From contig JAZLHT010000070.1 in the NCBI GenBank assembly GCA_045616965.1, positions 1-52,633 on the forward strand: a stretch of DNA of 52,633 bases. Reading direction: 5' to 3'. Position 1 is the first letter of the stretch; the number at the start of each line of letters is the position of its first letter. This document shows, in pieces, positions 160 through 25,422 of the stretch. Under the pieces are notes generated by a model. That model did not search any database and had not been told where the DNA came from. It was given only the letters and a program-made list of their open reading frames with translations. The DNA is from Candidatus Enterocola sp. (GTDB taxonomy: Bacteria > Bacteroidota > Bacteroidia > Bacteroidales > Paludibacteraceae). The position numbers and the translations under genes are program-made.

Positions 160-167
160 CAAGGACA

Positions 168-3653: not shown

Positions 3654-3658
3654 AGAGT

Positions 3659-5083: not shown

Positions 5084-5093
5084 CAACTAAAAT

Positions 5094-8000: not shown

Positions 8001-8330
8001 GTAATTACTCCTAAGATAAAATGCGAAATTAAATTCATTCTTGCACTATTCAATTCAAAATTAATGAACTACGTTTACAAGAATAATTTCAAATCAACAA
8101 AAACAGTATTCTCTGAAATTCAAGCAAGAAGTGTAGGAGAGTTACCAATAAAAAGAGATGATGCACATAAAACGGAAATAGTGAGTATAGTTGACAACAT
8201 TCTTGCTGCAAAGAAAGCAAACCCACAAGCCGATACTTCCGCTCTTGAGGCGGAGATAGACCGTTTGGTTTATGACTTATATGGCTTGACCGATGATGAA
8301 ATAGCCATCGTAGAAGGAACAAACACTTAA
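5094..8330 (+). CDS. Gamma-class N6-adenine DNA methyltransferase of the Eco57I/MmeI/PglX family with a C-terminal target-recognition-like region, about 1075 aa
   Basis: Motif order is GAYYTPKEIV, then DPAIGSGAFP (6474-6503), YGVDIEKGAIDIARLRFWL, LPNLDYKFMQGNSL, a long coiled insert, FFDWRIMFTEVF and FDIVIGNPPYV (NPPY at 7239-7250). The start is GTG at 5094 or ATG at 5106. Confidence 0.85.
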   Translation: MKIQMVDLKSYFHSKYQGGEDFIKNVIIPVFGEDKYEDTYGEDILENNTDLIKKAQGTGIVKILRLGTIDIPYNPTDVFDITVSDQVQMRRNRVAVQQLIRSVMSTYSSAFMIFHYSGDDKWDWRFTFCSKQGSNQESSDSKRYTFLLGPNQSCRTAAENFKKLADKCGNIELNDIVAAFDVEALSKEFFTKYKVHYDKFCQFVYDNKDNREYFGQEFSQWEDKIIRDYVKKLLGRIVFLHFLQKKGWLGVPSCGQWGDGDTQFMKHLFVASSDEQKSDYLDKVLEPLFSDALNTQRDNDVFNLNVAGFTDTKIPYLNGGLFERDELDIPKSTFPADYFADLFEFFYEYNFTIDENDPDDAEVGIDPEMLGRIFENLLEDNKDKGAYYTPKEIVQYMCRESLVAYLTTCVIKKHGDNHKPEEEIQASVRKLLKEPEAIVPKMTKEQLEDFGSYIRNVKICDPAIGSGAFPMGLLNELVRCRASINAWATDEKGSVLSGDYAALKAEIISNNIYGVDIEKGAIDIARLRFWLSIVVDEQTPEVLPNLDYKFMQGNSLITTFNGEYVNLDTNSQQHTNVVGMKREKAKLYSLKQKYYAATGDAKYQLGIDIKDSILTLISYQLGYEIQSWYEKNSAKQLSLFPETEPRQLSFADIKEQLPAEKQKIMDVGIAIRKQLADTTRSLAERAQTDIRFFDWRIMFTEVFEGENPGFDIVIGNPPYVQLSKQPNVSEHYKKVIKETFCTSGGRQNLFIFMLHQAINITNKNGVVTYIIPNTILTQEYYKDTRELLLKHHLHTIVNYNDMEFDNAVVENVTLIITKDSPKENDVQIYSCKGKEINYVKKISTIKFKRQKGYVFNINSNDFIEKLFENATPLNELCNINQAIALKGDKSLSIKQEYSPHYYKFLDGRNIGRYSIVWGGLYLDYDVERIHSCKRKDIFECKEKLFFRRVSANLMATYDNNQYFALNTLVVITPKIKCEIKFILALFNSKLMNYVYKNNFKSTKTVFSEIQARSVGELPIKRDDAHKTEIVSIVDNILAAKKANPQADTSALEAEIDRLVYDLYGLTDDEIAIVEGTNT

Positions 8331-8343
8331 AAACTTGACTAAT

Positions 8344-10575: not shown

Positions 10576-11808
10576 ATGTTTAATTACATTTGGGCAGGTT
10601 TTTTTATTGTGGCACTAATAGTGGGTGCCGCACAAGCCATTTTTATGGGTAATACCGCCATACTTGGCGATATGGTCAACTCAACGTTTGAGATGGCGGA
10701 GTTTTCTGTTATGGGTATAGCACTTCCGCTATGTGGAGTAATGACATTATGGTTAGGTCTTATGAATATAGGAGAAAAGGCAGGTGCCATAAACGTGATG
10801 TCAAGGGTAGTGGGTCCGTTTTTCTCAAAGTTATTCCCTGAGATTCCAAAAGGACACCCTGCAAGCGGTCAGCTGGTTATGAATTTCAGTGCAAACCTGC
10901 TTGGACTTGACAACGCAGCCACTCCGCTTGGACTAAAGGCAATGCAGAGCCTGCAGGATTTGAATCCTAAAAAGGATACGGCTTCAAATGCACAGATAAT
11001 GTTCCTTGCACTAAACACATCGGGGCTTACAATAATACCGGTTGCCATACTTGCCCAAAGAGCCATTCTTGGGGCGGCAAACCCTACAGATGTGTTTGTG
11101 CCGTTGCTAATATCAACATACGTTTCCACCATTTCCGCCATTATTTTTGTAGGAATAAAACAGCGTCTTAATCTGCTTAATTGGACAGTAATGGGGTGGC
11201 TTCTTGGACTTTCAGCCTTGATAGGCGGAATGTGCTGGTGGCTGTCAACCCTAAGCAGAGAGGGAATGACACTTGCAACCAATATAATAAGTAACGGAAT
11301 ACTCCTTATTATAATGGTAGGCTTTATAACAGGTGCCATAATGAAGAAAGTTAATGTGTTTGAAGCCTTTATTGAGGGTGCCAAAGGTGGTTTTGAAACC
11401 TCAGTAAAGATAATACCGTATATGGTGGGTACGCTTGTAGGTATAGCCGTTTTCAGAGCCTCAGGAGCCTTAGGATTTATTACAGACGGACTCGCTTGGG
11501 TTTGTGGACTCTTTACAGAGCGTACAGAGTGGGTTGATGCCATGCCTACAGCCTTTATGAAACCATTAAGCGGTAGCGGAGCCAAAGCCATGATGGTGGA
11601 GTGTATGAAAACCTTTGGACCCGATTCCTTTGCCGGCAGACTTAGCTGTCTGTTCCAAGGAGCCGCCGATACTACCTTCTATATTATAGCCCTGTATTTT
11701 GGTTCTGTGGGCGTAAAAAAGACAAGATACGCCATCGGTGCCGGACTTTTTGCAGATTTAATGGGTGTAATTGCCGCAATTTTTGTTGCTTACCTCTTCT
11801 TTTTTTAA
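10576..11808 (+). CDS. Nucleoside-recognition (Gate) domain membrane protein, fused SpmA/SpmB-like
   Basis: 410-aa polytopic membrane protein. N-terminus MFNYIWAGFFIVALIVG... resembles SpmA, and the second half resembles SpmB. Confidence 0.7.
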   Translation: MFNYIWAGFFIVALIVGAAQAIFMGNTAILGDMVNSTFEMAEFSVMGIALPLCGVMTLWLGLMNIGEKAGAINVMSRVVGPFFSKLFPEIPKGHPASGQLVMNFSANLLGLDNAATPLGLKAMQSLQDLNPKKDTASNAQIMFLALNTSGLTIIPVAILAQRAILGAANPTDVFVPLLISTYVSTISAIIFVGIKQRLNLLNWTVMGWLLGLSALIGGMCWWLSTLSREGMTLATNIISNGILLIIMVGFITGAIMKKVNVFEAFIEGAKGGFETSVKIIPYMVGTLVGIAVFRASGALGFITDGLAWVCGLFTERTEWVDAMPTAFMKPLSGSGAKAMMVECMKTFGPDSFAGRLSCLFQGAADTTFYIIALYFGSVGVKKTRYAIGAGLFADLMGVIAAIFVAYLFFF

Positions 11809-11837
11809 CATTTTTTAACATTTGATTAAACCTTTTT

Positions 11838-11873
11838 GTAATCATCAGTTATAATTTTGTAACTGATGATTAC
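11838..11873 (+). terminator. Rho-independent terminator-like hairpin after the spmAB-like gene
   Basis: Perfect 14-bp arms gtaatcatcagtta / taactgatgattac with an 8-nt loop, followed by a T-rich run (gtgattttttt). Confidence 0.6.
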
Positions 11874-11941
11874 AGTGATTTTTTTGCAAATTATAAAAAA
11901 TGTTAAAGTTTTGATTTAGTGTTTTTTATATAAAAAATTTG

Positions 11942-11978
11942 CCGTTACTTTGCAGTGCCAAACAATACAAAGTAACGG
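11942..11978 (+). promoter_or_regulatory. Perfect 11-bp inverted repeat plus T-run immediately before the first ORF of the tra operon (attenuator, operator or oriT-like; function unknown)
   Basis: Arms ccgttactttg (11942-11952) and caaagtaacgg (11968-11978). T7 follows, then the ATG at 11986. Confidence 0.4.
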
Positions 11979-11985
11979 TTTTTTT

Positions 11986-12174
11986 ATGTTCGGATTACAA
12001 TATATTAGTGTACATTTATTCTTAATTATTGTGTTTGCCATATTTACATTTTTTAACATTTCAGTATATGTATGGTTCCGTTATTTTTCAAATCCCGATA
12101 AGAAGAGAGAAGAGGAGTTGAGGCATCAGTTTGAATCAGATAGTGATGACAGTTTGGATGACATACCGTTTTAA
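11986..12174 (+). CDS. Small hypothetical membrane protein with an acidic C-terminal tail (about 62 aa)
   Basis: The ORF track starts at 11950, but its first 12 codons cover the hairpin. The ATG at 11986 gives MFGLQYISVHLFLIIVFAIFTFF... (one TM segment) followed by an EEELRHQFESDSDDSLDD tail. No family was recognised. Confidence 0.35.
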   Translation: MFGLQYISVHLFLIIVFAIFTFFNISVYVWFRYFSNPDKKREEELRHQFESDSDDSLDDIPF

Positions 12175-12186
12175 AATAATAATAAA

Positions 12187-12489
12187 ATGAAAAAGAGAGT
12201 GATTTTTTTATTATCCGCCACACATTCATCTATTGTGGCGTTGGCTCAAGGGAATGGAGTTGCCGCTATAGAAAAGGCAAATTCTGAGATTCAATCCTAT
12301 ATTGAACCTATTACCACACTATTTTATGTAATATGTGCGGTTGTAGGGTTTATAGGTGCTGTAAAAGTGTATAGCAAGTGGTCTTCGGGCAGTCCTGACA
12401 CCACTCGTACCGCTGCATCATGGTTTGGAAGCTGTGTATTTGCAGTTGTAGCGGTAACCGCTATCCGTGCGTTTTTCTTAGGCTCATAA
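12187..12489 (+). CDS. traE: TraE-like (DUF4134) conjugative transposon protein, VirB2-like pilin candidate
   Basis: Signal peptide plus AQGNGVAAIEKA...KVYSKWSSGSPDTTRTAASWFGSCVF closely resembles CTnDOT-family TraE. Confidence 0.85.
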   Translation: MKKRVIFLLSATHSSIVALAQGNGVAAIEKANSEIQSYIEPITTLFYVICAVVGFIGAVKVYSKWSSGSPDTTRTAASWFGSCVFAVVAVTAIRAFFLGS

Positions 12490-12501
12490 ACCATATTTAA
12501 T

Positions 12502-12813
12502 ATGGCAAGGTATCAAATAAATAAAGGAGTAGGAAAATCGGTAGAGGTAAAAGGTCTCAGAGCCCAATACTTTATATGTGCTGTGATAGGCATAGTGATC
12601 GCATTTGTAGTGTTTTTCATACTATCGTTTATTGTAGGTCAAGTGGCATCTATAATTGTAGCGGTTTTCTGCCTTGTCATAAATGTGTCAATGTGTTTCT
12701 ATTTGAATAATAAATTCGGAGAAAAAGGGTTGGTCCAATTATATGCCGTTAGGGCAATGCCAAAAAGGATTGCAATACATAAAAGGTTATACATAATAAT
12801 CGGAGTTAAATGA
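12502..12813 (+). CDS. traF: TraF-like (DUF4133) conjugative transposon protein
   Basis: MARYQINKGVGKSVEVKGLRAQYF... matches the conserved TraF N-terminus. Two TM segments are present. Confidence 0.85.
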   Translation: MARYQINKGVGKSVEVKGLRAQYFICAVIGIVIAFVVFFILSFIVGQVASIIVAVFCLVINVSMCFYLNNKFGEKGLVQLYAVRAMPKRIAIHKRLYIIIGVK

Positions 12814-15296
12814 AAATAAAGTCAAAGGATATTGAGAAGTGTCTGCCTCTGTTATGCTGGGAGAATGGCTGTCTTATCAGCAAAGCAGCGGACATAACGG
12901 TGCCGTTTTGTTTAAGTATGCCGCAGGTCTATTCTTTAGGAAAAGAAAATTTTGAACAACTGCATCAAACTTGGGTAAGGGCATTGAAATGTCTGCCGGA
13001 CAATTCCATTGTTCACAAACAGGATTGGTTTTTCACAGATGAGTATAAGGCTGACTTATCAGGTGAAAAAACATTTCTCGGTACTGCTTCTGACAATCAT
13101 TTTAATGGAAGAAAATCCATCAGGCATTGCTGTTTCCTATATCTTACCATGTCATCTGCAAAAAGTATTTCAACTACCAGTCAGTTTTCGGCACTTTGCA
13201 CTGGTAATTTAATAAGTGAGAATGTTTTAAATCTTGCTATGATTAAGTCTTTTTCCGATTCTGTAAGTCGCTTTTGTGGAGTTTTGGAAGAAAACGGAAT
13301 AGGCATAAGAAGGGTTAGTGAAAAGGAAATGTTGGGAACGGCGGCTGAATATGGTGTAATCGAGCAGTATCTTACGTTGTCTTTAGGTAAAACATCGGGT
13401 TATGCATTATGTGATATAACTTGTAATGAGATGGATACAAGGGTTGGTGATAATTATTTGAGCTGTTTCTCAATATCAGATTTGGACCAACTACCCTCCG
13501 AAGTTTTCACGTACAAGATTCATGATAAATTGTCGTCTGAAAGTACAAATTTTCCAATAGGCTATACACACTCTTTGGGTTTTGATTTGCCGTTTGACCA
13601 TATATATAATCAGTATTTCTTTTTAGTGTCGCATAAAGACACAATAAATGCAATAGAGCGCAGGGGAAGGGAACAGCAGTCACTGTCAAGAATCTCAAGG
13701 GAGAATGCTATAAACAAAGAGTTCAATGATATGTATCTTAATGAGAGTGTAATCAATGCCAGAAGGTGTGTAAAAGTGGCTGCGAACATACTTTTATGGG
13801 ACACCAACTATCAGCGGTTACTAAAAAAGAATACCAAAACAGGCTCGGTACTTGCAAATATGGATTGTACTGTATCAAAAACACAAGGTATAGTGCCACA
13901 GATTTTTTGGGGCGGGATACCAGGTGCAGCGTCACAGTTTCCGTCAGAGATGACATTTCTCACTTTTTTGGAACAAGCCTGCTGTTTTGTTTATAACGAG
14001 AGCAATATTAAGTCAGTCGGTAGTGATTTTGGCATACGTTTATGTGATAGGATTTTTGGATTACCACTGAATATAGATATATCGGATTATCCAAGGCAGA
14101 AGGGTTGGACTGATAATAGGAACAAATTTATACTTGGTCCCTCAGGTACAGGGAAATCATTTTTCACCAACCACATGGTCAGGCAATATTACGAACAAGG
14201 AGCACATGTAGTAATTGTCGATGTTGGCGACAGTTACCAAGGTTTGACAAAAATGATACAGGAAACAACTAATGGCAAGGATGGTGTTTACCTCCAGTAT
14301 TCAGAAGAACATCCAATTTCGTTCAACCCTTTTTATGTTGCAGACAGAGTATATACTGTTGAGAAAAGGGAGCAGTTGGCTGCTTTGGTTTTCTGTCTTT
14401 GGAAGAATGAAAGTGAGCAGATAACAAAAGCGGAAGAGACGCACATTTCAGTGGCAATAAATAATTATATCGACTACATTATGCAAAACAGTATATTCCC
14501 TTGTTTTGACACTTTTTTTGAATATTTAGATGTGCAGTACAGGGAATACATGTTATCAAAAGGAGTGGATAAATATAGTTTTGACATAGATAATCTGCTT
14601 CAGGTGTTGAGTCCGTACTACATAGGTGGAATGTACCATTTTTTACTAAATGCTACAGAAAATGCTGATTTGCTTGACAAGCGTTTTATTGTATTTGAAA
14701 TTGACAGCATAAAGGACCATAAAACTTTATTTCCAGTGGTTACGTTGATGCTGATGGATACCTTTATATCCAAGATGAGACACCGTTCTCTAGCAATGGA
14801 TAGAAAAATGATATTGATAGAAGAGGCTTGGAAAGCTATATCAAAGAGTGGTACGGCACAGTTCATAAAATATTTGTACAAAACCGTTAGAAAGCACTTT
14901 GGAGAGGCGATTGTAGTTACACAGGAGGTTGATGACATTGTTGGAAATGAAATCATAAAGAACACTATTATTTCAAACGCCGATTGCAAGATATTACTTG
15001 ATCAGCGTAAATATGCAAATAGATTTGATGATATAAAGCAAATTCTCGCGTTAAGCGAAAAGGAGGCGGCGATAGCACTGTCAATTAACAAGGATATAAA
15101 AACAGTTGGAAGAGCACCCTATAAGGAGGTTTTTATAACATTAAACGGGAATCTTACATCTGTATATGGCGTGGAGGTTTCCAAAGAGGAATATTTGACT
15201 TATACTACGGAGAAAAAAGAGAAAGAGACTGTCATTCAAAAAGAGAAGGAGACAGGTAGTTATATAGAGGCAATTAAAAGTCTGATAAATAAATGA
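12810..15296 (+). CDS. traG: TraG-family conjugative transposon ATPase (VirB4-like)
   Basis: 828 aa. Walker A GPSGTGKS at 14136-14159. ATGA overlap with traF. Size and position are typical. Confidence 0.9.
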   Translation: MKIKSKDIEKCLPLLCWENGCLISKAADITVPFCLSMPQVYSLGKENFEQLHQTWVRALKCLPDNSIVHKQDWFFTDEYKADLSGEKTFLGTASDNHFNGRKSIRHCCFLYLTMSSAKSISTTSQFSALCTGNLISENVLNLAMIKSFSDSVSRFCGVLEENGIGIRRVSEKEMLGTAAEYGVIEQYLTLSLGKTSGYALCDITCNEMDTRVGDNYLSCFSISDLDQLPSEVFTYKIHDKLSSESTNFPIGYTHSLGFDLPFDHIYNQYFFLVSHKDTINAIERRGREQQSLSRISRENAINKEFNDMYLNESVINARRCVKVAANILLWDTNYQRLLKKNTKTGSVLANMDCTVSKTQGIVPQIFWGGIPGAASQFPSEMTFLTFLEQACCFVYNESNIKSVGSDFGIRLCDRIFGLPLNIDISDYPRQKGWTDNRNKFILGPSGTGKSFFTNHMVRQYYEQGAHVVIVDVGDSYQGLTKMIQETTNGKDGVYLQYSEEHPISFNPFYVADRVYTVEKREQLAALVFCLWKNESEQITKAEETHISVAINNYIDYIMQNSIFPCFDTFFEYLDVQYREYMLSKGVDKYSFDIDNLLQVLSPYYIGGMYHFLLNATENADLLDKRFIVFEIDSIKDHKTLFPVVTLMLMDTFISKMRHRSLAMDRKMILIEEAWKAISKSGTAQFIKYLYKTVRKHFGEAIVVTQEVDDIVGNEIIKNTIISNADCKILLDQRKYANRFDDIKQILALSEKEAAIALSINKDIKTVGRAPYKEVFITLNGNLTSVYGVEVSKEEYLTYTTEKKEKETVIQKEKETGSYIEAIKSLINK

Positions 15297-15916
15297 GTAT
15301 GAAAAAGTTATACATATCAATCTTATTGCTTGCTTTTTGGAACACAATTTTTTCGCAGGCTGTGGTTACAGACCCTACCTCAATGTCACAGAGGATAGCG
15401 TTGTTTTTTGAGGAGATGGAGGAATCAATATCTCAGAGTATTGATATTGCTGATAATGCAGAAAATATGAGCAAGTTGTTTGAGCTTACAAAAGAATCTG
15501 CTGAAAAATTAAAAAGGGTAAGCAATTTTGTAAAGGCTTCACGGCAGGTTGTGGAGATTACCGGTGCAGAGATAAGAATTGCCGATAAAATGGACAAGTA
15601 TATCAACAGAATCAACGAAATTGATGAATTGACAATGACGGAGAAACTAAATATAATAGCTTCTATTATGAATTTTGGAACAGTTGCCGCAGAACGTATA
15701 AAAAATGGTGTTGAAATGGCAAAGAATGGTGTAAATGACGCAGATTTGTCTGATTATGAAAGAATAGAGATTTTAACAAAAATAGAAGATGAAGTGTTGG
15801 CATTGGAAGATGCGATAGATAAGACGTACGAACTGAGTTTGTCTAAAGTGGCTTATGACGGAATTAAAAACGGCATGGAGAACTTGAAGGTTCAAGCGAT
15901 GACATTCTCATTTTAA
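15293..15916 (+). CDS. DUF4141/TraI-like conjugative transposon protein
   Basis: Signal peptide followed by VVTDPTSMSQRI... and a coiled region, resembling DUF4141 proteins found between TraG and TraJ. The TraH-versus-TraI naming is uncertain. Confidence 0.55.
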   Translation: MSMKKLYISILLLAFWNTIFSQAVVTDPTSMSQRIALFFEEMEESISQSIDIADNAENMSKLFELTKESAEKLKRVSNFVKASRQVVEITGAEIRIADKMDKYINRINEIDELTMTEKLNIIASIMNFGTVAAERIKNGVEMAKNGVNDADLSDYERIEILTKIEDEVLALEDAIDKTYELSLSKVAYDGIKNGMENLKVQAMTFSF

Positions 15917-15927
15917 ATCAGTAATAT

Positions 15928-17055
15928 ATGAATTATTCATTAGAAATAGTACAAAATCTTGGCGAATCAGTGACGCAAGGGTTGAACAAAGTATATTCAA
16001 CTGCTGTTAATTACGCCGATATGCTTTCTTCCACCGCACAACTGATATGTGGTATCGCTGCTTTGCTATATATAGGATCAAAACTTTGGAAATCTTGGGC
16101 CAAAGGGGAACCTATAGATTTTTACAGTATGTTAAGACCTTTTGCCATAGGGTTGGTAATTATATTTTTTACTGGTTTCACCAAGGTTTTGGACGCTCTT
16201 GTAAAACCAATAGAGGTAGCCACGGAATTTGTAAAAGAATCCGCTTCTGATAGAATGGAATCCTCCTATGCTGAATATTTTGAGACACAGAAAAAAATGA
16301 GAGAGGTGCAGGCACAGGCGGAAGCCAAATCAAAGGCTTCAGAGGAGAAATTGAGTGTTTGGCGTACTATCAGCAAAAATATAGGGGAAATAAAGGATAA
16401 TATAGTTAACTCAGTGGGCAGTTTATCTGATACAATCTTTAAATTCTTAGTGGATTTGGGCAGTATGACTGTAGATATTTTCACAATGGCTACGGTTTAT
16501 TTTTACAAGGTATATGTGGTGACAGCCAAAATTGTTTTAGTGTTGATAGGTCCGTTTGCTTTAGCACTTTCTGTAATACCAGGGTTTGAAAAGAATTTTA
16601 AGGCTTGGGTTGCCCAGTATATAAATATCAGCTTGTATATCCCAATTTGTAATATTATAGGGTTTGTGCAGACAATGATAGTAAGTGAGTGTCTTTATGC
16701 TCCTGGAACATCATCAATGCAGGCAGTAATAGATCAAACCACAGCGGAATCCACATTGGTTTCCATAGACAGCAACACAATTATGGTGCAGATTTGTGGA
16801 ATGTTATTAGGCATAATATCAATTATGCTATATTCTCATGTGCCTGTTTTTGCAAATTGGATTTTGCGGGGAGACGGTTCAGGCGGACTTGCAGCGGCAT
16901 TCAGCGTAGGAGGCGGATTGGCTGCCACTAAGGTAGGAGATGCGGAGAGTGTGAATCAGATTGCTTCAAAATTCGGACTTGGGGGCAATCAACCGCAACA
17001 ACAGACGCAAGTACAGCCACAGTCGCAGGTACAACAGAATTCAATAGATAAGTAG
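15928..17055 (+). CDS. traJ: TraJ conjugative transposon protein (VirB6-like polytopic membrane protein)
   Basis: The GEPIDFYSMLRPFAIGLVIIFF motif matches TraJ and there are multiple TM segments. It carries an unusual Q-rich C-terminal tail (GGNQPQQQTQVQPQSQVQQN). Confidence 0.85.
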   Translation: MNYSLEIVQNLGESVTQGLNKVYSTAVNYADMLSSTAQLICGIAALLYIGSKLWKSWAKGEPIDFYSMLRPFAIGLVIIFFTGFTKVLDALVKPIEVATEFVKESASDRMESSYAEYFETQKKMREVQAQAEAKSKASEEKLSVWRTISKNIGEIKDNIVNSVGSLSDTIFKFLVDLGSMTVDIFTMATVYFYKVYVVTAKIVLVLIGPFALALSVIPGFEKNFKAWVAQYINISLYIPICNIIGFVQTMIVSECLYAPGTSSMQAVIDQTTAESTLVSIDSNTIMVQICGMLLGIISIMLYSHVPVFANWILRGDGSGGLAAAFSVGGGLAATKVGDAESVNQIASKFGLGGNQPQQQTQVQPQSQVQQNSIDK

Positions 17056-17057
17056 AT

Positions 17058-17678
17058 ATGATTAAGAGTTTGCAAAATATTCAATCGACATTTTCTCTTG
17101 TGAGAATATATATGGTACTTGTGACCGTTATAACTATTGCTGTATCTGGATATGCAGTGTGGAAATCATTCCAATTTGCAGAAAAGCAGAGAGAAAAAAT
17201 ATATGTCTTGGACGGTGGAGCGTCATTGCTTATGGCATTGCAACAAGATGTGAATCAAAATAGACCGGCTGAGGCAAGGGCACATGTAAAATTGTTTCAT
17301 GAGTATTTTTTTACCATTTCACCGGATAAAAGTTCAATTGAGCAAAGATTGGTACAGGCATTGGCATTAGCAGGTAATGATGCGTATGAGCAATATATGA
17401 ATCTGAAGGAGGAAGGCTTTTATGATAGAGTGATAGCCGCTGGAATAAACTGTGAGATACAGACTGATAGCGTAATAGTTGATACTGGTTCTTACCCGTT
17501 TAAGGCGTATTATTATGGCAAGACAGCCATAGTAAGAAGTTCTAATATAACGTATAGGAATCTAGAAACGCAATGTGAGTTAATCTCTTGTGCAAGGTCA
17601 GACAATAATCCGCACGGATTTGTCATAGAGAGATGGAAAATATTGGATAACAGTGATTTATCTGTAGTAAATAAGTAA
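17058..17678 (+). CDS. traK: TraK conjugative transposon protein (VirB8/9-like)
   Basis: FAEKQREKIYVLDGG...NRPAEARAHVKLFHEYFFTISPDK...SDNNPHGFVIERW closely matches remembered CTnDOT TraK. Confidence 0.9.
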   Translation: MIKSLQNIQSTFSLVRIYMVLVTVITIAVSGYAVWKSFQFAEKQREKIYVLDGGASLLMALQQDVNQNRPAEARAHVKLFHEYFFTISPDKSSIEQRLVQALALAGNDAYEQYMNLKEEGFYDRVIAAGINCEIQTDSVIVDTGSYPFKAYYYGKTAIVRSSNITYRNLETQCELISCARSDNNPHGFVIERWKILDNSDLSVVNK

Positions 17679-17872
17679 TGAACAAAACGGAATATTATAG
17701 AAAACGCATTGCTCTTATAATTAAGAGCATAAGTGACAGATTCAGTTCTTATTTAAATGAAATGAATCCTTCAAAAAGAAAGTGTGCGTTAATAGTGGCA
17801 TTTGTTGTTTGCCTGACAGTACTTGTAATTCAAACAATGGTGGCGTATTTTAAACTTATAGATAAAATTTAA
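17678..17872 (+). CDS. traL: TraL-like small membrane protein
   Basis: 64 aa with a single TM segment. It sits between traK and traM as in CTnDOT-type operons. The call rests on position and size only. Confidence 0.45.
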   Translation: MNKTEYYRKRIALIIKSISDRFSSYLNEMNPSKRKCALIVAFVVCLTVLVIQTMVAYFKLIDKI

Positions 17873-17873
17873 T

Positions 17874-18938
17874 ATGAGCAGAAAACAGAAATCTCTTCAC
17901 ATCTATTCGGTATTTGCATTGGTATTTGTAATAGTTACATATTTTGTATTAGGTGGCGGAAAGCAATCAGATATCAATGCAATGGGAAAATCGTATGGCA
18001 TAAACATGGATATACCTAATTCCAAAGAGGAGGATTTGGCGGCAAACAGATTTGCTGCTGAAAAAAGAGAGGAGATACGCAATCAAGAACAAAATCATAG
18101 GAATATGGTGCAAAAGCATTCGTTCAGTATTGTACAGCACGACACAATAATAGAATCCGATAGGGCCCGCATAGCATCTCAAAGTCTAAACCACAAAACT
18201 TGTATATCATCCGGCATTAGGGAGGATGAGAAAAAGCGTAAAATGGAGAATAAATACGAAAGAAGGGAAAAGATAATGAGAAAAAAGCGGGCTCAATTGG
18301 AGGAAAAATTGGGAATCAACCTCTCTGATTATGGATATACTAAATACGAGATACCTGAAGAAGTTGTTACGCCAAAAGCAGATACAATTGAAATTGCATC
18401 TAATGCAGGTGTTGCGGAAAGCGTCAATTCAGAATCACATGGGTTTTATGGTTTGGAATCAGAGGTTGATAATTTTGAAGGAGATGTAAAAGCGGTTGTC
18501 CATGGGGATCAAAAAAATCTTAAATCGGGAGCGATAGTGAAATTGAGACTAATTGAAACTCTTGAAGTAGAGGGCGTTAATGTTCCAAAAAATACATTTG
18601 TTTATGGAAAACTGACTTTTGGAAACGGGAGAGGAATAATTAAAATACAGAACATAAACTATAGAAATAAAATTCTTCAGTTTAGAGGAACTGTTTACGA
18701 CAGTGATGGATTTGAGGGGATATATGTTCCGGATAACATTGTCAGTGACACAAAATCCAAGGCGGCATCGTCGGCGGTGGGTAGTGTAGATATTAAGGCG
18801 GGCTCTAAAAATAAGATGATAAATTCCGCCATTTCTTCAATAGGCGATGTAATTAAAAATGCGGTACAAGGCTCGATAAAAGAATCAAAAATATCCATTT
18901 CATCCAATTATTCAGTAACAATAAAACGAATAAAATGA
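17874..18938 (+). CDS. traM: TraM conjugative transposon protein (VirB10-like)
   Basis: N-terminal TM segment. The C-terminal VKAVVHGDQK...VKLRLIE...VYDSDGFEGIYVPDN matches the conserved TraM C-domain. Confidence 0.8.
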   Translation: MSRKQKSLHIYSVFALVFVIVTYFVLGGGKQSDINAMGKSYGINMDIPNSKEEDLAANRFAAEKREEIRNQEQNHRNMVQKHSFSIVQHDTIIESDRARIASQSLNHKTCISSGIREDEKKRKMENKYERREKIMRKKRAQLEEKLGINLSDYGYTKYEIPEEVVTPKADTIEIASNAGVAESVNSESHGFYGLESEVDNFEGDVKAVVHGDQKNLKSGAIVKLRLIETLEVEGVNVPKNTFVYGKLTFGNGRGIIKIQNINYRNKILQFRGTVYDSDGFEGIYVPDNIVSDTKSKAASSAVGSVDIKAGSKNKMINSAISSIGDVIKNAVQGSIKESKISISSNYSVTIKRIK

Positions 18939-20026
18939 AGAATCTTAAATTTTACTTATTCGCTATTTCCGCTATTGTGGCATCAAATGGTCACTTATAT
19001 GCAGAGGAATCAGAACAATTGCAATTGAACGATACTCATTGTGTGGTGCTTAAATTTTCAAGTGATGTCAAGTATGTTGATTTTGGCAGCAGTGCCATTG
19101 TGGGAGAGAGACTTTCATCAGATAAAATGTTAAAATTGCAAAGTTCCAAGCCTGATTTTCCGGAATCAACCATTTCTGTAGTAACATCAGACGGAGGATA
19201 CCATCAATTTAACGTCGTCTATTCACAGAATCCCGAAAAATATGTGTGGCAACAGGAGGGAGAGTCATTTTTTACCGATTCCATCGGGTTTTCTTCTGAA
19301 AAAACAACGCACTTTATATGTGATGAGAAAATTAACGATATTGTATTGGGTAGTAATTCCATAATAGCGGCATACGCTGATAAAATAGAAAATATTATCA
19401 AGGCAAAAGCATTAAATGCAGATTTTGCTGAGACAAATATTCATTTTATTACTGAAACCGGATACGTCTATACCTTCATTGTAAAACCTGATCCTTCCCC
19501 TGACAGACTGTCTGTGCAACTGTCGTCAGATGAAGATCAGTCGTCGCAAGCCATTTTCAGAAATAATTCCGTAAATGATAAGCAGATGAACTCTTTTGCC
19601 AAAAAACTTGTTGAGGTAAAACCGTCGCTTAATGATATCGGAGTAATTAAATCTAAAATGGTTTTTGCGATGTCTGGCATATATGCCTATAATGATATGC
19701 TTGTTTTTAGATTTGATATTCAGAACTATGGTAAAATTGAGTATGAACTTGATTTTATGAAGGGTTATGTTAAAGATAAAAAAGAGACTAAGACCACTGC
19801 AATTCAGGAGGAGGAGATAATTCCTGTTTATGTTTATTTCTCTAAAAGTGTGTCTCCTTCCATTCTTAAGGGTGGAGAGAAAGAATCTATTGTAATGTTT
19901 TTCTCAAGATTCACTATTCCGCCAAGCAGAATCCTCTACTTTGAAATGTTCGAGAAAAATGGAGGCAGGCATCTTGCATTTCCTGTTTCAGACAGGGAGT
20001 TGTTGAAGGCAAAGGCATTATATTAA
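18935..20026 (+). CDS. traN: TraN conjugative transposon protein (DUF4138, VirB9-like)
   Basis: Duplicated ...VVTSDGGYHQFNVVY.../...FITETGYVYTFIV... modules. The C-terminal GIYAYNDMLVFRFDIQNYGKIEYELDF...DKKETKTTAIQEEEIIPVYVY matches TraN. Confidence 0.75.
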   Translation: MKNLKFYLFAISAIVASNGHLYAEESEQLQLNDTHCVVLKFSSDVKYVDFGSSAIVGERLSSDKMLKLQSSKPDFPESTISVVTSDGGYHQFNVVYSQNPEKYVWQQEGESFFTDSIGFSSEKTTHFICDEKINDIVLGSNSIIAAYADKIENIIKAKALNADFAETNIHFITETGYVYTFIVKPDPSPDRLSVQLSSDEDQSSQAIFRNNSVNDKQMNSFAKKLVEVKPSLNDIGVIKSKMVFAMSGIYAYNDMLVFRFDIQNYGKIEYELDFMKGYVKDKKETKTTAIQEEEIIPVYVYFSKSVSPSILKGGEKESIVMFFSRFTIPPSRILYFEMFEKNGGRHLAFPVSDRELLKAKALY

Positions 20027-20041
20027 CTAACATTATTTTAT

Positions 20042-20587
20042 ATGAGAAGGATTTTATTTAATTTTTTATTGGCGGCGATTATGTTTTTTTGTGTATCTCT
20101 TGCATACGCAGAATCATCGATATCGCATATCAAGGGTATGAATGCCATAGGGATTAGGGCAGGGACAGGATTAGGTCAGACATTTGATGTGGGGGTACTG
20201 TATCAATATCACTTTTCTAAAAGATGGTCATTCCTTGTAAATGTGGATTTTGAAAAAGGTAAATTCAAAAATGCAGATTTTTGGGGAATAAAGATACATC
20301 CTGGTGTTGAGTGCAGTGTTTGGCATCCTATTTCGTGGTTTTATCTTCATCTTTTGGGTGATATAAATTTAGGTTATGATGATTGGAGAAACAAAGACAT
20401 AGACAAAATCACGTCGGGATTTGTAATGGGACTTGATTTGGGTATGAATTTTGAATTTTACGCAGTTCCGCAACTTTCATTTGTGTTGCAGGCACAGCAA
20501 GGTTGGGATTGGGGCTTTTATAAAAGCGGGGGATACAACTATTTTCATCCTCTGTTCTCTTTAGGTATTAAGTATAACATTAAATAA
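20042..20587 (+). CDS. traO: TraO-like small outer-membrane beta-barrel protein
   Basis: Signal peptide and alternating beta-strand pattern. The MNAIGIRAGTG...Y.Y...KRWSFLVNVDFEKG layout is like TraO and the gene follows traN. Confidence 0.6.
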   Translation: MRRILFNFLLAAIMFFCVSLAYAESSISHIKGMNAIGIRAGTGLGQTFDVGVLYQYHFSKRWSFLVNVDFEKGKFKNADFWGIKIHPGVECSVWHPISWFYLHLLGDINLGYDDWRNKDIDKITSGFVMGLDLGMNFEFYAVPQLSFVLQAQQGWDWGFYKSGGYNYFHPLFSLGIKYNIK

Positions 20588-20593
20588 AAGATT

Positions 20594-23500
20594 ATGAAAA
20601 AAATATTAACCGTACTGTTTGTATTATTTATAGTGTCAAATTTCTCTTTTGCATATCAAAGTTATTGGGACGGAATATCGACATCAGTTTTTAAAGTAAA
20701 GGATATGATGAGGAAAATGCCCGAAGCGTCCAATGCTTATGTTTCAATAAACAAGCAATTGATTACTGACGGAAAGTTGGATTGTTCCGTTTCAATGAAT
20801 TTGACTTGGCATAATTTTTTTACTCGAGGTCCCTTTTTTAGTGATATTTGCGGTTTTTGGACTGTGGTTGAAATTAACTACGAGAGAAGGGTGTATTATG
20901 CACTTGCAACTTCTAACTCCTATACCGAACTTCAGTCTCTTAGGGTTAAAGATGGAAAATTTGATGTGAGGAGTGTATCTATGCGCCCATCGGATGATGT
21001 AGACTATGGAACTAGAATGCAGGAATGCTCAACTGAATTCAGAGATTTTATTGAATCGGACATAAGTAATCTGACTCCAAATAAAGAGTATAAGTTAAAG
21101 GTGGAGTACTTTTTTACGGTAGTGCCAGAAGCAGATATTTGCGGCTCAAATTATGACGCTACAGAAACAACAAGATATGTAACAAAACAAACTGTTTCTA
21201 TAGGGAATATGAATACAGGTGCAGATGCAAAATTTAAGTTATATTCTTCTGTTGTCAATTCAGTAATAAATGCCAATAGTTTGTTTAATCCTATATACAA
21301 TACAGGTTCAGGAGACAGATATTTGATATATGATAATCCCGACGCAGTTATCGCTGTTGTTGCGGATAAATTGAATTTACCGTCAAAGGTCGAAGTTGAA
21401 AGTGGTACAAATGTATCTTGCAAATATGGTGCAGGTGCGTATATTGCATCAATAGGGTCATCGTCATTGCCTACAGAGATAGATACATATATTCCTACCA
21501 CCGGAGGGTGTGGTATATACGTTAAAGATTGCTCCAAAAACTGCAACGGGCTGTCAAATGTAAATGTTCAGTTTGTGAATGACAATGTGTTGCAAAAATC
21601 GTTTCTTTTGTCCAAAGGCGGCTTGCAGAGAAATGTCTGTTATAAAAGATGGACAAACATTATGCAACGTTCTATTGATGAAGGCATGAGCGTTTATGAT
21701 GAAAACACATTAGAGCATTTTGATATATATGATTCTAATGATTACAGAATGAGCAGAATGTTTCATTTAAGAGATTTGTCTAATGTGGATGTATATACAA
21801 AAAAAGGATATGGAGCAGGAACTACAATAAAAATTCAAAATTCGGCTTTGTATAATGGTTCTTTCCAAAATTCCATGCGTGAAGATCTTGCAGATTTCTA
21901 TGCATTAGGATATATGTATTACGGTCCATCTATAGATAAGGAAATTGCGACAGGGAAGGGGACTGTAAGTAATATTCTCGTGTTTGAGGTAGTGAATGAA
22001 GCTAAATTGCCGGCTGTCAGTACTTCTGATAAATTACCAAAGATGACTTGTATAACAGATTCTCTTGTTAAGGAGGGCGATTTTATACATTTAAAAGGGT
22101 CTGCCATACAATGCGGAAATTACTCTGAAACCATATACAATCCGGATTATATATGGGAGGTGTCATTCAATGGTGCTGATTGGGAGACTCTTGATAAGAA
22201 ATCATTTTCAAAATATATAATTGATAGAAACAGTTTGGGTTTTGCCGTAGTTGTTGACCCTGATAGAGATATATTAGTTAAATCAACAATTTTAAAAAAC
22301 AGGAGCCAAGCCCAATTTAGACAAAAAGTTATATTAAGATCGTTTGCCTCAGATGAGTTTAGTCCGTTATATAACTATAGAATTGATGACAAATATTACA
22401 TTTCCATAGTGTCAGGCGATTTTTATACGTATATCCCAACTCCGATATTGGATCAGGATAATATCGCTTTTACTCCTTCAACATTTCCTTTGGAGCAGAG
22501 ATTATGTAAAGGCGATGTTCTTACAAAAAATAAAATATCATTTAAATTGAAGAGTTCCACCAATGTAAGCGCTGATAAAATCGGAAAATTATCCGAAATA
22601 GCCGATTATAAAATTTATGAGTTACATGGAGATACTGTTGGAAAATTAGTCTCAAATGCAGCGTCATATACGATTAATTATTCGGGTAAGACAATAGGTT
22701 TCAGATGTGTGATTTCATGGTGTAATGATTCTATCTACAAGGATGTGCACATAATAGCTAATGATGATGAATCCATTGAGTTGAAAGACATTTACTCAAA
22801 TGTTGTGATTGTAGAAAGAAACGAGACTGAAAATAAGTTAAAACTGCTTTGCCAAAGAGGGGTTGTCCCTACTATTTCTTTATTTGAAAAGGTGAATAAT
22901 GAATTTGATTATCAATATCGTGGAGTGTCACCATACTCGAATCCCATTATTACTGTAAATGATTTTTCTTCAATGTCAAGGACAAAAATCATCTCATTTA
23001 TGAAAAGTGCTAATTGGGACTATGAGGCTGAAACAGGTACAGATGTTGATAATACTGGAATTGATGCGTTGAGAGCGTGGTGTCGTGTTAAAGAGGATAA
23101 AACTAACGCAATGATTGTTTCCAATGCAAAAAACAACTACGTAAGTGCAAACGCATGGTATGGGTTTACTGATAACAATATAACAGAGTTGCCTGTTTCA
23201 AATGCAACAGCTTCTGATATGAGTTTTTATGTAATGAAGCAGAACGTTAAAACTAAATGCTATAGTGATAGTGTAAAAATAGAAATTGTTTTTTTTGATG
23301 GCATAGAGGATAATAAGATTGCTTTTTCCGCAGCATCAGATGCTTCAAAGAGTGAAGTGTATGTTATGGAGAATACAAATTCCCCTGCGATTAAGGGATA
23401 TGTGATAAAAGGTGGTTATGGAGTTCCGTCCAAAGAAAACAGCTTTAAATACGTATATCGCTACATCTATAGAGAAAGCGGAGGTGTTTGGCAACAGTTG

Positions 23501-24586
23501 GGATCTGATATAGAAGTGTATGGTGACAATAATAAAAATGTGTCGTTGAAGGCTGGTGCATTGGCAATGGATCGATTGTATCAAGTGGCGAGAGTCGTTT
23601 ATTCAAGAGTTGGCAACGATATTCTCACTCAAGTGACAGATACAAGTAATATTTTGACTATAAATGTAATAGAAGAATTAAAGACTGATGATATAGAAAT
23701 TTATAATAATGGTTCATGTGCCGGTGTTGTTGTTACATTAGGAGTTCCCAATTATGACCCTTCTAAAAAAATTAAGGATGCGACACGCTTTATCTGGTCT
23801 GCCAGCGATACTGCGGTAAAGATTATTTCTTACGATGAAATGGAAAGATATTGCAGTTTGTACAATACTCGTTCAGATTTTAATGTTTATGTTTATAGAA
23901 CAGACACAATAACCGGTGCAAGAACTAAAACTGTGGAAATACCTATAGATGTTGTAGAGGTCAAGCCTAAGTTTTCTATTACTGCAGATGGGGTGACAAG
24001 AAATATAATGGATTACCCCAATGAGAATTTTTACTTTCAAAGTGGAACCAGATTTGTGTTAAATAATAGCAGCGAAGGGGCAGACAGTTATCTATGGAAT
24101 TTGGAATTACAATATTATAGCGGTTCTGAAATTGAAGGGCTGACCTCATATGTTGAAAATCCTGTTTGTTATCTCTACAATCCAGGTCAGAATAGAATAA
24201 GGCTTACCGCTATGAACTCGTTGGGGTGTGAATCTCAAATTACAGCAGAAAATATCTATATACAATCTTCTTCCGTTAAAAATGCCACAGTAAATTCGCA
24301 TTTTGAAAGAAGTGGAGTCACACCTCAATTTCCAAATGAATTTACTTCTGGTTATGAGGTTTATCCTACTGTCACAACAGGGGATGACATAAATATCTAT
24401 TATTCAAAAGGGTTGTTCCGCTATACCCTTATGGATTCAATGGGGCGGATTATATTGGAAGGTGTATCTGATATGTTCAGAAAAATTGATTATGAGAATC
24501 TTTCTGACGGAGTTTCCACTTTAGTCTTGGAAGCTGGGGACAACGGCAATTCAAATAATAAAATCATCAGACTTATAAAACAATAA
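20594..24586 (+). CDS. Large secreted protein (1330 aa) with a PKD-like domain and a T9SS C-terminal sorting domain
   Basis: Signal peptide MKKILTVLFVLFIVSNFSFA. PKD-like segment at about 23963-24265 (KPKFSITADG...FVLNNSSEGADSYLWNL...NPVCYLYNPGQNRIRLTAMNSLGCES). CTD at about 24350-24583 (VYPTVTTGDDINIYYS...YTLMDSMGRIILEG...LSDGVSTLVLEAG...IIRLIKQ) fits the Por_Secre_tail pattern. Confidence 0.75.
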   Translation: MKKILTVLFVLFIVSNFSFAYQSYWDGISTSVFKVKDMMRKMPEASNAYVSINKQLITDGKLDCSVSMNLTWHNFFTRGPFFSDICGFWTVVEINYERRVYYALATSNSYTELQSLRVKDGKFDVRSVSMRPSDDVDYGTRMQECSTEFRDFIESDISNLTPNKEYKLKVEYFFTVVPEADICGSNYDATETTRYVTKQTVSIGNMNTGADAKFKLYSSVVNSVINANSLFNPIYNTGSGDRYLIYDNPDAVIAVVADKLNLPSKVEVESGTNVSCKYGAGAYIASIGSSSLPTEIDTYIPTTGGCGIYVKDCSKNCNGLSNVNVQFVNDNVLQKSFLLSKGGLQRNVCYKRWTNIMQRSIDEGMSVYDENTLEHFDIYDSNDYRMSRMFHLRDLSNVDVYTKKGYGAGTTIKIQNSALYNGSFQNSMREDLADFYALGYMYYGPSIDKEIATGKGTVSNILVFEVVNEAKLPAVSTSDKLPKMTCITDSLVKEGDFIHLKGSAIQCGNYSETIYNPDYIWEVSFNGADWETLDKKSFSKYIIDRNSLGFAVVVDPDRDILVKSTILKNRSQAQFRQKVILRSFASDEFSPLYNYRIDDKYYISIVSGDFYTYIPTPILDQDNIAFTPSTFPLEQRLCKGDVLTKNKISFKLKSSTNVSADKIGKLSEIADYKIYELHGDTVGKLVSNAASYTINYSGKTIGFRCVISWCNDSIYKDVHIIANDDESIELKDIYSNVVIVERNETENKLKLLCQRGVVPTISLFEKVNNEFDYQYRGVSPYSNPIITVNDFSSMSRTKIISFMKSANWDYEAETGTDVDNTGIDALRAWCRVKEDKTNAMIVSNAKNNYVSANAWYGFTDNNITELPVSNATASDMSFYVMKQNVKTKCYSDSVKIEIVFFDGIEDNKIAFSAASDASKSEVYVMENTNSPAIKGYVIKGGYGVPSKENSFKYVYRYIYRESGGVWQQLGSDIEVYGDNNKNVSLKAGALAMDRLYQVARVVYSRVGNDILTQVTDTSNILTINVIEELKTDDIEIYNNGSCAGVVVTLGVPNYDPSKKIKDATRFIWSASDTAVKIISYDEMERYCSLYNTRSDFNVYVYRTDTITGARTKTVEIPIDVVEVKPKFSITADGVTRNIMDYPNENFYFQSGTRFVLNNSSEGADSYLWNLELQYYSGSEIEGLTSYVENPVCYLYNPGQNRIRLTAMNSLGCESQITAENIYIQSSSVKNATVNSHFERSGVTPQFPNEFTSGYEVYPTVTTGDDINIYYSKGLFRYTLMDSMGRIILEGVSDMFRKIDYENLSDGVSTLVLEAGDNGNSNNKIIRLIKQ

Positions 24587-24590
24587 TAAT

Positions 24591-25382
24591 ATGAATATTT
24601 CAAAAATTTTATTTTGGGCAAATCTGTTGCTTATATCATCTACAGTACTTGTTTCGTGCGAGACGCGTAACGATTTGTTTCATAAATTCAATGAAGTTCC
24701 ATCTGTTTATGTAAATAGTCAATCCAGAAAATTTGATGATAAAAAATCCGACACTCAATTTATTTTAAGACATGGAGAGAAAAAAACGGTTTATTTTGAT
24801 TATACCGATGACTATATTCAAACGGGACTACATATATCGTTTCAAGTATATAGTGAGCAATCCGTACCTGAATACATAAAATGTACACTTGACTATGATT
24901 CAAGAAAATTAGTTGTTGAAGATACATTGCCACAGCATATATTAAATGATAAGGTTGTCAAATTCACTGTTAAGATATCGGTGACTGATTATTATGGGGA
25001 TAAAGGAGAGGCAGTTATAAATGTTACAGACTATGATAACAATCCTCCTATGCCTATAATACATGTAACCAAAATTCAGGCAATGGAATATTCAATCAGT
25101 GCGGTTGAAACCACAGACCCTGATTCAGATGAGGTTTTGGAGTATGAGTATCTTATAGACGGAGAACCTACTATCATGAAATCAGGTTATGAAAATCAGG
25201 ATAATCCTAAAGATTTGTTAAATCCTGGTATGGCTGGTATAAAAGGTACGTATATAATATCAACCCCGTTAAATGTTGTTAAGCACGCATTCCAGACATC
25301 AGGAACGCATGTTATTTATGTAAGGGCAAAGGATTCTTTAGGTTTATGGAGTGCATGGAGCAGACTTAATATTGATATTTAA
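24591..25382 (+). CDS. Lipoprotein with Ig/cadherin-like features, function unknown
   Basis: Lipobox LVSC followed by ETRND. It contains VTDYDNNPP and TTDPDSDE segments reminiscent of Ig-like or cadherin-like folds. It starts 4 nt after the preceding stop. Confidence 0.55.
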   Translation: MNISKILFWANLLLISSTVLVSCETRNDLFHKFNEVPSVYVNSQSRKFDDKKSDTQFILRHGEKKTVYFDYTDDYIQTGLHISFQVYSEQSVPEYIKCTLDYDSRKLVVEDTLPQHILNDKVVKFTVKISVTDYYGDKGEAVINVTDYDNNPPMPIIHVTKIQAMEYSISAVETTDPDSDEVLEYEYLIDGEPTIMKSGYENQDNPKDLLNPGMAGIKGTYIISTPLNVVKHAFQTSGTHVIYVRAKDSLGLWSAWSRLNIDI

Positions 25383-25393
25383 GAAAAAAGCAG

Positions 25394-25401
25394 TAACTTT
25401 G
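25394..25401 (+). promoter_or_regulatory. -7 promoter box TAACTTTG upstream of rnhB, followed by a 7-bp hairpin (25401-25421)
   Basis: Exact TAnnTTTG match 22 nt before the ATG at 25423. The hairpin is ggagatg-taaaatt-catctcc. Confidence 0.45.
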
Positions 25402-25422
25402 GAGATGTAAAATTCATCTCCA

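Follow-up and report, generated by a model that had tools for sequence, protein, structure and literature searches.

How does an intact conjugation apparatus come to sit among the housekeeping genes of a gut bacterium when the genes that mobilize DNA are missing? The question is raised by a 52,633-nucleotide stretch of DNA from Candidatus Enterocola sp. (assembly GCA_045616965.1, contig JAZLHT010000070.1; hereafter "the window" at its full length), in which an earlier note, made from the sequence alone, had picked out a block of type IV secretion system (T4SS) genes running from traE to traO. That note offered three explanations: a decaying integrative and conjugative element (ICE), an apparatus served in trans by DNA-processing genes elsewhere, or a T4SS domesticated for a function other than conjugation. 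Our comparisons strongly support the third. The block is very probably a domesticated (exapted) T4SS of the mating-pair-formation class MPF_B, encoded by a 13-gene chromosomal operon in uncultured Paludibacteraceae of the herbivore gut, to judge from its fixed position, a divergence that tracks that of its neighbors (r = 0.85), and its place in a mobility-free clade whose sister is conjugative. Because the intact block has been kept at one site without DNA-mobilizing genes, it appears to have been taken over by the host for a job of its own.

The 13 genes are tightly packed on the + strand and form one operon (window positions 11986–25382), with ybeY-spmAB on its left and rnhB on its right. 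Their order is small62, traE-F-G, a traI-like gene, traJ-K, a traL-like gene, traM-N-O, a 1330-aa gene, and the gene for a 263-aa lipoprotein. The earlier note's description of the tra genes held up: the ten homologs stand in canonical order by Pfam and NCBIfam matches, position, and comparison with conjugative relatives; adjacent genes are spaced by −4 to +15 nt, with ATGA overlaps among the junctions; and no gene carries a frameshift. Its list for the interval was incomplete, since three further genes (11986–12174, 20594–24586, and 24591–25382) belong there too.

What does the core encode? The first tra gene, traE (12187..12489), specifies a VirB2-like pilin (DUF4134; PF13572, E 1e-30), followed by the VirB3-like traF (DUF4133, 12502..12813; PF13571, E 1e-18) and by traG (12810..15296), a VirB4-family ATPase that scores 943 bits against TIGR03783 (cut-off 262). 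The Walker A motif of TraG (GPSGTGKS), its Walker B motif (ILIEEAW), and the acidic box that follows are identical to those of conjugative relatives, and VirB4/TrwK were its only matches in a sequence search of the PDB. TraK (17058..17678) is VirB8-like (TIGR03781, 263 bits; an exact-protein look-up returned no record), TraM (17874..18938) is VirB10-like (PF12508, E 2e-31), and TraN (18935..20026) is VirB9-like (PF13595, E 2e-68; TIGR03780, 228 bits); PDB sequence searches with TraN and TraM gave no match. TraJ, TraO, orf207, and orf64 are, judging by position and direct comparison with conjugative relatives, orthologs as well. TraJ (15928..17055), a divergent VirB6-like polytopic channel protein, reaches 112 bits against TIGR03782, under the curated cut-off of 290, yet is the positional ortholog. 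TraO (20042..20587) falls slightly below the PF10626 cut-off at 22.6 bits and shares 44% identity with TraO of the conjugative locus L101 (E 1e-55). The traI-like secreted protein in the VirB5 position, orf207 (15293..15916), has no significant family match and a weak one to DUF4141, and shares homology with the gene next after traG in two conjugative loci, L016 (E 3e-8) and L101 (E 2e-7). The small traL-like membrane protein orf64 (17678..17872) is placed by position and a weak TraL_transposon match (E 0.06). A VirB4 of the TraG (Bac_Flav_CT_G) clade with TraE, F, J, K, M, and N co-linear around traG places the system in MPF_B, where these six proteins are the equivalents of VirB2, 3, 6, 8, 10, and 9, respectively (PMC4027160).

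Are the genes that mobilize DNA truly missing? The earlier note had seen no relaxase, type IV coupling protein (T4CP), ParA, primase, or recombinase in the window, and Pfam searches of all its main open reading frames (ORFs) agree, with no match to PF03432 or MobC anywhere in the 52.6 kb. A tblastn search that took T4CP, relaxase, ParA, and topoisomerase proteins from related conjugative elements as queries likewise found nothing in the window or in 17 relative loci. The same queries matched loci L014–L016 and 13 of 27 canonical conjugative transposon (CTn) loci used as positive controls, which came from a metagenome scan with a TraK profile that returned almost only canonical human-gut CTn loci at ~50% identity. 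Nor do a relaxase and T4CP lie just outside the block, where the note had allowed for them: housekeeping genes stand on both sides in every locus. The relaxase/mob region, T4CP, integrase, and variable presence that mark a CTnDOT-type ICE are all wanting. What is left is a VirB4-containing chromosomal T4SS locus without a neighboring relaxase or integrase, which fits the published definition of a relaxase-less (MOBless) or exapted T4SS in the sense of Guglielmini et al. (PMC3158045, PMC3548315).

How widely is this arrangement shared? A genome scan with TraK, in which all relatives are metagenome-assembled genomes (MAGs) or metagenome contigs, recovered eight species-level genomes at 75–94% TraK identity; their source material is horse faeces and rumen, and their labels read Paludibacteraceae, Candidatus Enterocola, or uncultured Bacteroidales. 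All eight have ybeY-spmAB, a small ORF, traE through traO, a giant ORF, and a 263-aa ORF in the same order, so that the check proposed in the earlier note, whether relatives carry the block beside spmAB, found it at the same site each time; a full ICE occupies that site in none of them. The operon genes are full length across the eight except for the giant gene of L008, and the orf64 frame is intact in six, down to 30–36% identity, with none recovered in L005 and L008.

The junction with spmAB is constant, whereas the right-hand neighbor varies: rnhB in the window, L001, and L002; a metallophosphoesterase in L003 and L004; an M28 peptidase plus a GT2 glycosyltransferase in L005 and L006; and RNase R in L007 and L008. 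The window homologs of the L003–L008 neighbors lie at 48–52 kb, beyond ~23 kb of sequence (25423–48000, rnhB to a trypsin-like protease) that separates the operon from the metallophosphoesterase, GT2, M28, and RNase R genes. The varying junctions and these displaced homologs indicate that the chromosome has been rearranged around an operon that stayed whole.

Beyond the close relatives, TraG homologs form a continuous series from 93% to 49% identity. In L010 and L011 (TraG 58%) the full module adjoins an inverted ybeY-spmAB; in L018 (62%) the small ORF and traE-N stand by spmAB, followed by flavodoxin, argD, and nrd genes; in L019 and L020 (59% and 57%) traE-N lies between recQ-clpXP-focA and an M23 peptidase; and in L012 and L013 (54%) traE-N and a beta-helix protein lie by zapA and rny. 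No mobility genes occur within 10 kb of any of these seven loci. The reduced forms in L018, L019, and L020 keep traE-N and lack traO and both surface proteins. In L012, where two extra genes separate traK from traM, a 644-aa beta-helix protein (18375–20309) replaces traO and the giant protein: the core has stayed the same but bears another accessory surface protein. One partial TraG, P0112 (62% identical), carries the NCBI label "Clostridia bacterium" and is probably from a mis-binned Bacteroidales contig.

Is the block under selection? Pairwise ratios of nonsynonymous to synonymous divergence (dN/dS, Nei–Gojobori), with dS saturated in many pairs, are 0.02–0.21 for the recognized tra genes, including 0.05–0.10 for traE and 0.04–0.07 for both traG and traJ; orf64 gives 0.19–0.35, and flanking housekeeping genes 0.01–0.09. 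The dN/dS test suggested in the earlier note thus returns purifying selection on the recognized tra genes. These values bear directly on the first explanation, that the block is an ICE remnant in decay whose genes are still intact by chance. Every mobility gene is indeed missing, and third-position GC content (GC3) is slightly below that of the flanks, as such a remnant might show. However, the block is syntenic in the eight species-level relatives and intact in more than 17 loci across deep divergence, its tra genes are under purifying selection, its ATPase motifs are conserved, and in none of the relatives is the site occupied by a full ICE. The decay explanation is refuted on these grounds, and we regard it as barely credible.

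Is the operon inherited with the chromosome? Distances between T4SS proteins and between neighboring housekeeping proteins are correlated (r = 0.85–0.88), and the two sets of trees recover the same pairs and outgroups. The operon is therefore passed on mostly by vertical descent, but not purely so. Between L001 and L005 the proportion of synonymous differences (pS) in the flanking genes mnmG, ybeY, and spmAB is 0.28–0.39, against a saturated 0.60–0.82 in the T4SS genes, and between L007 and L008 it is 0.19–0.50 against 0.58–0.76. Between L003 and L004, T4SS genes and flanks show comparable similarity (pS 0.20–0.43 and 0.33–0.51, respectively), and the giant gene alone is saturated (pS 0.77; nonsynonymous proportion, pN, 0.23). 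Synonymous saturation inside the block between close relatives points to allele replacement, and the sequences describe a locus of deeply divergent, individually conserved alleles that are swapped by homologous recombination. Swapping of divergent alleles is typical of cell-surface or recognition loci. The adjoining spmAB genes (window 10576–11808) are 98–99% identical in protein and have pS 0.22–0.33 where mnmG and ybeY are saturated (pS 0.75); they may have been swept or exchanged together with the junction.

By eye, the earlier note had judged the block more AT-rich than its flanks, and it is so by a modest amount: GC3 reaches 0.380 in housekeeping genes but 0.343 in the T4SS genes and 0.288 in the two accessory genes, and per-gene GC is 0.29–0.42 in the block and 0.36–0.45 in housekeeping genes. 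We considered recent acquisition on the strength of codon usage and GC and rejected it, the difference being small and the block old at its site.

Where did the operon come from? In a neighbor-joining tree of TraG the mobility-free loci (57–93% identity) form one clade, whose sister is the P0080/P0082 group. P0080 and P0082 (TraG 55–56%) carry Rep3, relaxase, MobC, and ParA, with a T4CP gene between traL and traM and a giant ORF of 1247–1503 aa after traO; P0113 and P0119 (50–51%) carry relaxase, MobC, ParA, topoisomerase, and T4CP. On this gene content the sister clade is genuinely conjugative and shows the ancestral state, and the sequence comparisons indicate that the block descends from a conjugative plasmid or ICE of the L016/L101 type. 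Such an ancestor would have carried Rep3, relaxase, MobC, ParA, traE-L, a T4CP, traM-O, and a giant surface protein. The Paludibacteraceae lineage would then have retained the whole mating-pair-formation module (the TraE pilin, equivalents of VirB3, B4, B5, B6, B8, B10, and B9, TraO, and the giant adhesin) and cleanly lost the relaxosome, coupling protein, and partition genes, while the gene before traE was shortened to a 62-aa membrane anchor. In the sister conjugative elements the coupling-protein gene stands directly upstream of traM; in the window no trace of it is left in the traL–traM interval, where orf64 and traM are 1 nt apart.

This clean loss is relevant to the second explanation, in which the chromosome supplies channel and pilus, and relaxase and T4CP are encoded elsewhere or brought in by mobilizable elements or plasmids. 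The apparatus is complete and intact, several ICEs and integrative mobilizable elements often share one Bacteroidales genome, and allele replacement at the locus attests to DNA movement between these lineages. Use of a T4SS in trans is itself extensively documented (PMC3158045). However, the mobilizable elements known from Bacteroides (NBU and Tn4555 types) supply a relaxase without a coupling protein, which the block lacks as well. Retention at one site under purifying selection, from species- to family-level divergence, is hard to explain by benefit to unrelated elements, and a T4CP gene, present within the tra operon in the sister elements, has been precisely excised here. We therefore consider a helper role in trans quite unlikely.

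What do the genes downstream of traO contribute? The giant gene big1330 (20594..24586, +) encodes 1330 aa with a Sec signal, immunoglobulin (Ig)-like arrays, and a C-terminal PKD-like region plus a putative sorting domain of the type IX secretion system (T9SS). The lipoprotein gene orf263 (24591..25382, +) encodes 263 aa with an LVSC lipobox and two Ig-like/cadherin-like domains. Neither belongs to a Pfam family, and their homologs (12 for big1330 and 25 for orf263) are all restricted to the clade. An AlphaFold2 model of big1330, of moderate confidence (pLDDT 63.5), shows arrays of Ig-like beta-sandwiches; its top Foldseek matches, all at low TM-score, are the Aureispira grappling-hook protein GhpA, cadherins, the S-layer protein Sap, and PrgB Ig domains. 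We rejected GhpA and PrgB as specific homologs, these being generic Ig-array matches. The confident model of orf263 (pLDDT 89.7) has two Ig-like beta-sandwiches that match generic Ig, FN3, and cadherin adhesion modules. PADLOC found no defense-relevant match for TraG or the accessory proteins.

The C-terminal ~75 aa of big1330 match the full Por_Secre_tail profile (PF18962) weakly in the window copy (E 0.09); the profile is matched in three of ten orthologs, at best with E 9e-4. The protein also has a YPT...GxY...KIIRK pattern, which we take to fit type-A sorting domains, and it is likely a T9SS cargo. It is the fastest-evolving product of the operon (44–70% identity where TraG shows 68–93%), and we read it as a hypervariable surface fiber or adhesin. 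Its first ~260 alignment columns match the giant post-traO ORFs of L016 (hhalign, 90%, E 1.5e-6) and L101 (85%, E 6e-6). In L008 (13336–17245) the ortholog appears as two overlapping ORFs (348 and 969 aa), through either a frameshift or a MAG assembly error; no other gene of the clade was seen to be broken.

Could the whole operon then be an organelle of attachment, with TraE pili and the giant fiber serving gut attachment, aggregation, or biofilm formation and nothing being translocated? A VirB4-dependent pilus requires the whole core, which fits selection on every gene; two Ig-domain surface proteins are co-transcribed with it; and, like many surface structures, the adhesin is hypervariable and has been exchanged through recombination. 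However, L018, L019, and L020 keep traE-N without traO or the surface proteins, so the core has been selected independently of the adhesins, and a conserved, cytoplasmic tail resembling that of SSB, the protein that binds single-stranded DNA, would be left unexplained. We consider a purely adhesive role unlikely.

That tail belongs to the first gene of the operon, small62 (11986..12174, +), an unannotated gene directly before traE, whose 62-aa product has one N-terminal transmembrane helix and an acidic tail ending in DDIPF. These residues match the C-terminal tip of SSB, in which the sequence DDDIPF binds SSB partner proteins (PMC5872125). The orthologs end in DDIPF, DDLPF, EDLPF, DELPF, or EELPF while the remaining tail falls to 27% identity, and the terminus [DE][DE][IL]PF is conserved in nine orthologs and two further database homologs. 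Among 15,142 open frames (stop-terminated, at least 40 codons, from all fetched DNA) only ten end in this way: the nine small62 orthologs and the genuine SSB of conjugative locus L016. Because basic residues follow the transmembrane helix, the positive-inside rule predicts a cytoplasmic tail. An exhaustive HMMER search gave three real matches and one repeat artifact, which makes small62 lineage-specific. The gene before traE in conjugative relatives encodes 227–278 aa, with the same N-terminal transmembrane segment and a long acidic tail; the segment starts with MFGLxxISW in L014 and L015 and with the closely related MIFSGISW and MSFLSSISW in L016 and L101. By this resemblance small62 is a truncated homolog of that gene, and it may be a membrane-anchored mimic of the SSB tail. 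The reduced variants L019 and L020 have their T4SS operon close to recQ-clpX-clpP (L019 3117–5297, L020 143–2323), and the small protein of L019 ends in SLPF. RecQ is a classical partner of the SSB tail; its proximity here is probably a coincidence.

Which known systems does the operon resemble? With CTnDOT-type and other MPF_B elements it shares gene families, the order TraE, F, G, (I), J, K, (L), M, N, O, and the VirB4 family (TIGR03783), the closest being the plasmid-like L016 and L101 with their homologous giant protein after traO. It differs in having no relaxase, MobC, T4CP, ParA/TraA, primase, topoisomerase, Rep, or integrase, in its fixed chromosomal site and largely vertical inheritance, and in a pre-traE gene cut to 62 aa. 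Helicobacter pylori's ComB system is likewise chromosomal and without relaxase or coupling protein; it keeps VirB2, 3, 4, 6, 7, 8, 9, and 10 (PMC3548315, PMC4027160), where the block has equivalents of VirB2, 3, 4, 6, 8, 9, and 10. ComB is an MPF_T system that takes up DNA, whereas the block is MPF_B, is known from sequence alone, and has three further components: a gene in the VirB5 position, a putative T9SS-type adhesin, and a small protein whose tail resembles that of SSB. The archaeal Ced/Ted systems, domesticated conjugation machines that import DNA, also have a conjugation-derived pilus with VirB4 and VirB6 and are chromosomal, lineage-conserved, and free of relaxase (PMC9905601). They span a single membrane with far fewer components, and their function has been shown experimentally, unlike that proposed for the block. 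Patescibacteria, too, have a lineage-wide chromosomal T4SS, mostly without relaxase, that has been read as co-opted (PMC12102498); that system derives from MPF_FATA, a monoderm-type class, in a different phylum.

A further rival is a T4SS that secretes proteins, either an antibacterial one (X-T4SS- or Dot/Icm-like) or a Ptl-like exporter of periplasmic cargo. Relaxase-less T4SSs often secrete proteins (PMC3158045), Bordetella Ptl and Brucella VirB function without a T4CP (PMC12102498), and a fixed locus with alleles so deeply divergent recalls those involved in antagonism. However, VirB/D4, Dot/Icm, and X-T4SS have a coupling protein and cognate effectors, with immunity genes in X-T4SS, whereas the block lacks the coupling protein and no effector/immunity-like gene pairs lie in or beside the operon at any locus. 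The accessory proteins have export routes of their own (Sec plus a putative T9SS sorting domain, or a lipobox). Ptl and Brucella VirB are MPF_T systems with known toxin or effectors, and no candidate cargo was found at the block. We hold a protein-secretion role to be very unlikely.

What, then, might the machine do? We propose that TraG would power assembly of an envelope-spanning channel and a TraE pilus, and that the 1330-aa fiber, probably exported by the T9SS, would with the Ig-like lipoprotein make or specify cell–cell contact. As the coupling protein is missing, the machine must act independently of a T4CP, like ComB, Ptl, Brucella VirB, and Ced; among such systems, ComB imports DNA (PMC4027160, PMC3548315, PMC12102498). 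The cytoplasmic DD(I/L)PF tail would dock an SSB-partner enzyme at the base of the channel, with RecQ, RecJ, ExoI, PriA, and topoisomerase III as candidates. We favor DNA uptake or exchange between related cells because of the ComB-like composition, the precedent of Ced domestication, and the SSB-tail mimic at the cytoplasmic face; this function, which we think the likeliest, is a tentative proposal. The explanation taken as a whole, a domesticated T4SS with this origin and mode of action, we consider somewhat more probable than its negation. Going further, the Paludibacteraceae block might be a bacterial counterpart of archaeal Ced, moving cellular DNA between related cells without relaxase or coupling protein, with a hypervariable T9SS-displayed adhesin that sets partner specificity and a membrane-anchored SSB-tail mimic that recruits host recombination or replication enzymes to the channel; we regard so specific a reading as doubtful. 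If it were true, the deep allelic divergence of the block would be a footprint of the very exchange that it mediates.

Several observations weigh against this interpretation. Selection on all the core genes would be accounted for just as well by a pilus or adhesion role alone. Only the inner clade has the SSB-like tail, which is absent in L010 and L018 and has SLPF in its place in L019; as it is missing in the deeper branches, it is not essential to the ancestral exapted function. ComB-type systems are needed for natural transformation and operate with ComEC; the competence genes comEC, dprA, and comF have no counterpart in the window. The absence of mobility genes covers ±10 kb around each relative locus. 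Finally, the GC3 of the block lies below that of the housekeeping genes, and its codon usage correlates with theirs at r = 0.68 (relative synonymous codon usage).

How is the operon set apart from its surroundings? The earlier note's reading of both flanks was correct. On the left, domain matches confirm ybeY and spmAB (two Gate domains), closed by a terminator hairpin with an 18-bp stem and T-run (11836..11875, +) that separates them from the T4SS operon; in an eight-species intergenic alignment its stem pairing is kept through compensatory changes. In the same alignment columns 139–147 are invariant and correspond to the motif GTTACTTTG (11944..11952, +), which fits TAnnTTTG at seven of eight positions and is a probable −7 promoter box of the Bacteroidetes type for the T4SS operon. 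On the right, rnhB encodes RNase HII and is preceded by a perfect Bacteroidetes −7 box, TAACTTTG (25391–25398). A second hairpin before the small ORF (11942–11979) was rejected as a regulatory element because it is conserved only in the window and L001. A sigma-70 promoter scan, ill-suited to Bacteroidetes, gave no enrichment over shuffled sequences, and Rfam found only tRNA-Phe in the whole window, with no known RNA upstream of the operon.

Upstream of ybeY, where the relatives have mnmG, the window carries a defense island (1–10152) with no equivalent in any related locus. It includes an HKD(PLD)-plus-SNF2 helicase protein truncated where the window begins, a type IIG restriction-methyltransferase, and a pair of Schlafen/AlbA_2–HATPase_c_4 proteins. 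Far from these two, a third paralog with Schlafen/AlbA_2, HATPase_c_4, and Fic-like_C domains (43585–45165, −) lies beside the tRNA-Phe gene (45409–45482).

What does the finding add to the biology of these systems? Exapted relaxase-less T4SSs were already known (PMC3158045, PMC3548315), and by 2012 protein delivery had been shown experimentally for MPF_T and MPF_I only (PMC3548315). The cases of DNA import (ComB) and DNA export (the gonococcal genetic island, GGI) fall in MPF_T and MPF_F, and in the literature that we searched, neither an MPF_B system fixed in its host nor a T4SS of Paludibacteraceae is reported. Bacterial conjugation machines are regarded as belonging to mobile elements, and Beltran et al. 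set this against the archaea, in which such machinery has been domesticated (PMC9905601). Sequence comparison suggests three features as new here: a first gene with an SSB motif, a hypervariable Ig-array giant that is likely T9SS cargo, and saturated synonymous divergence of the block between close relatives. With the ancestral conjugative state, the exact losses, and descendants at several depths all visible, the operon offers a clean case for studying the conversion of a selfish machine for DNA transfer into an organ of its host. Concrete, testable handles on its function come from the SSB-tail mimic and the pattern of allele replacement, and the block bears on the capabilities of a T4SS that has no coupling protein, in gut Bacteroidales that are abundant.

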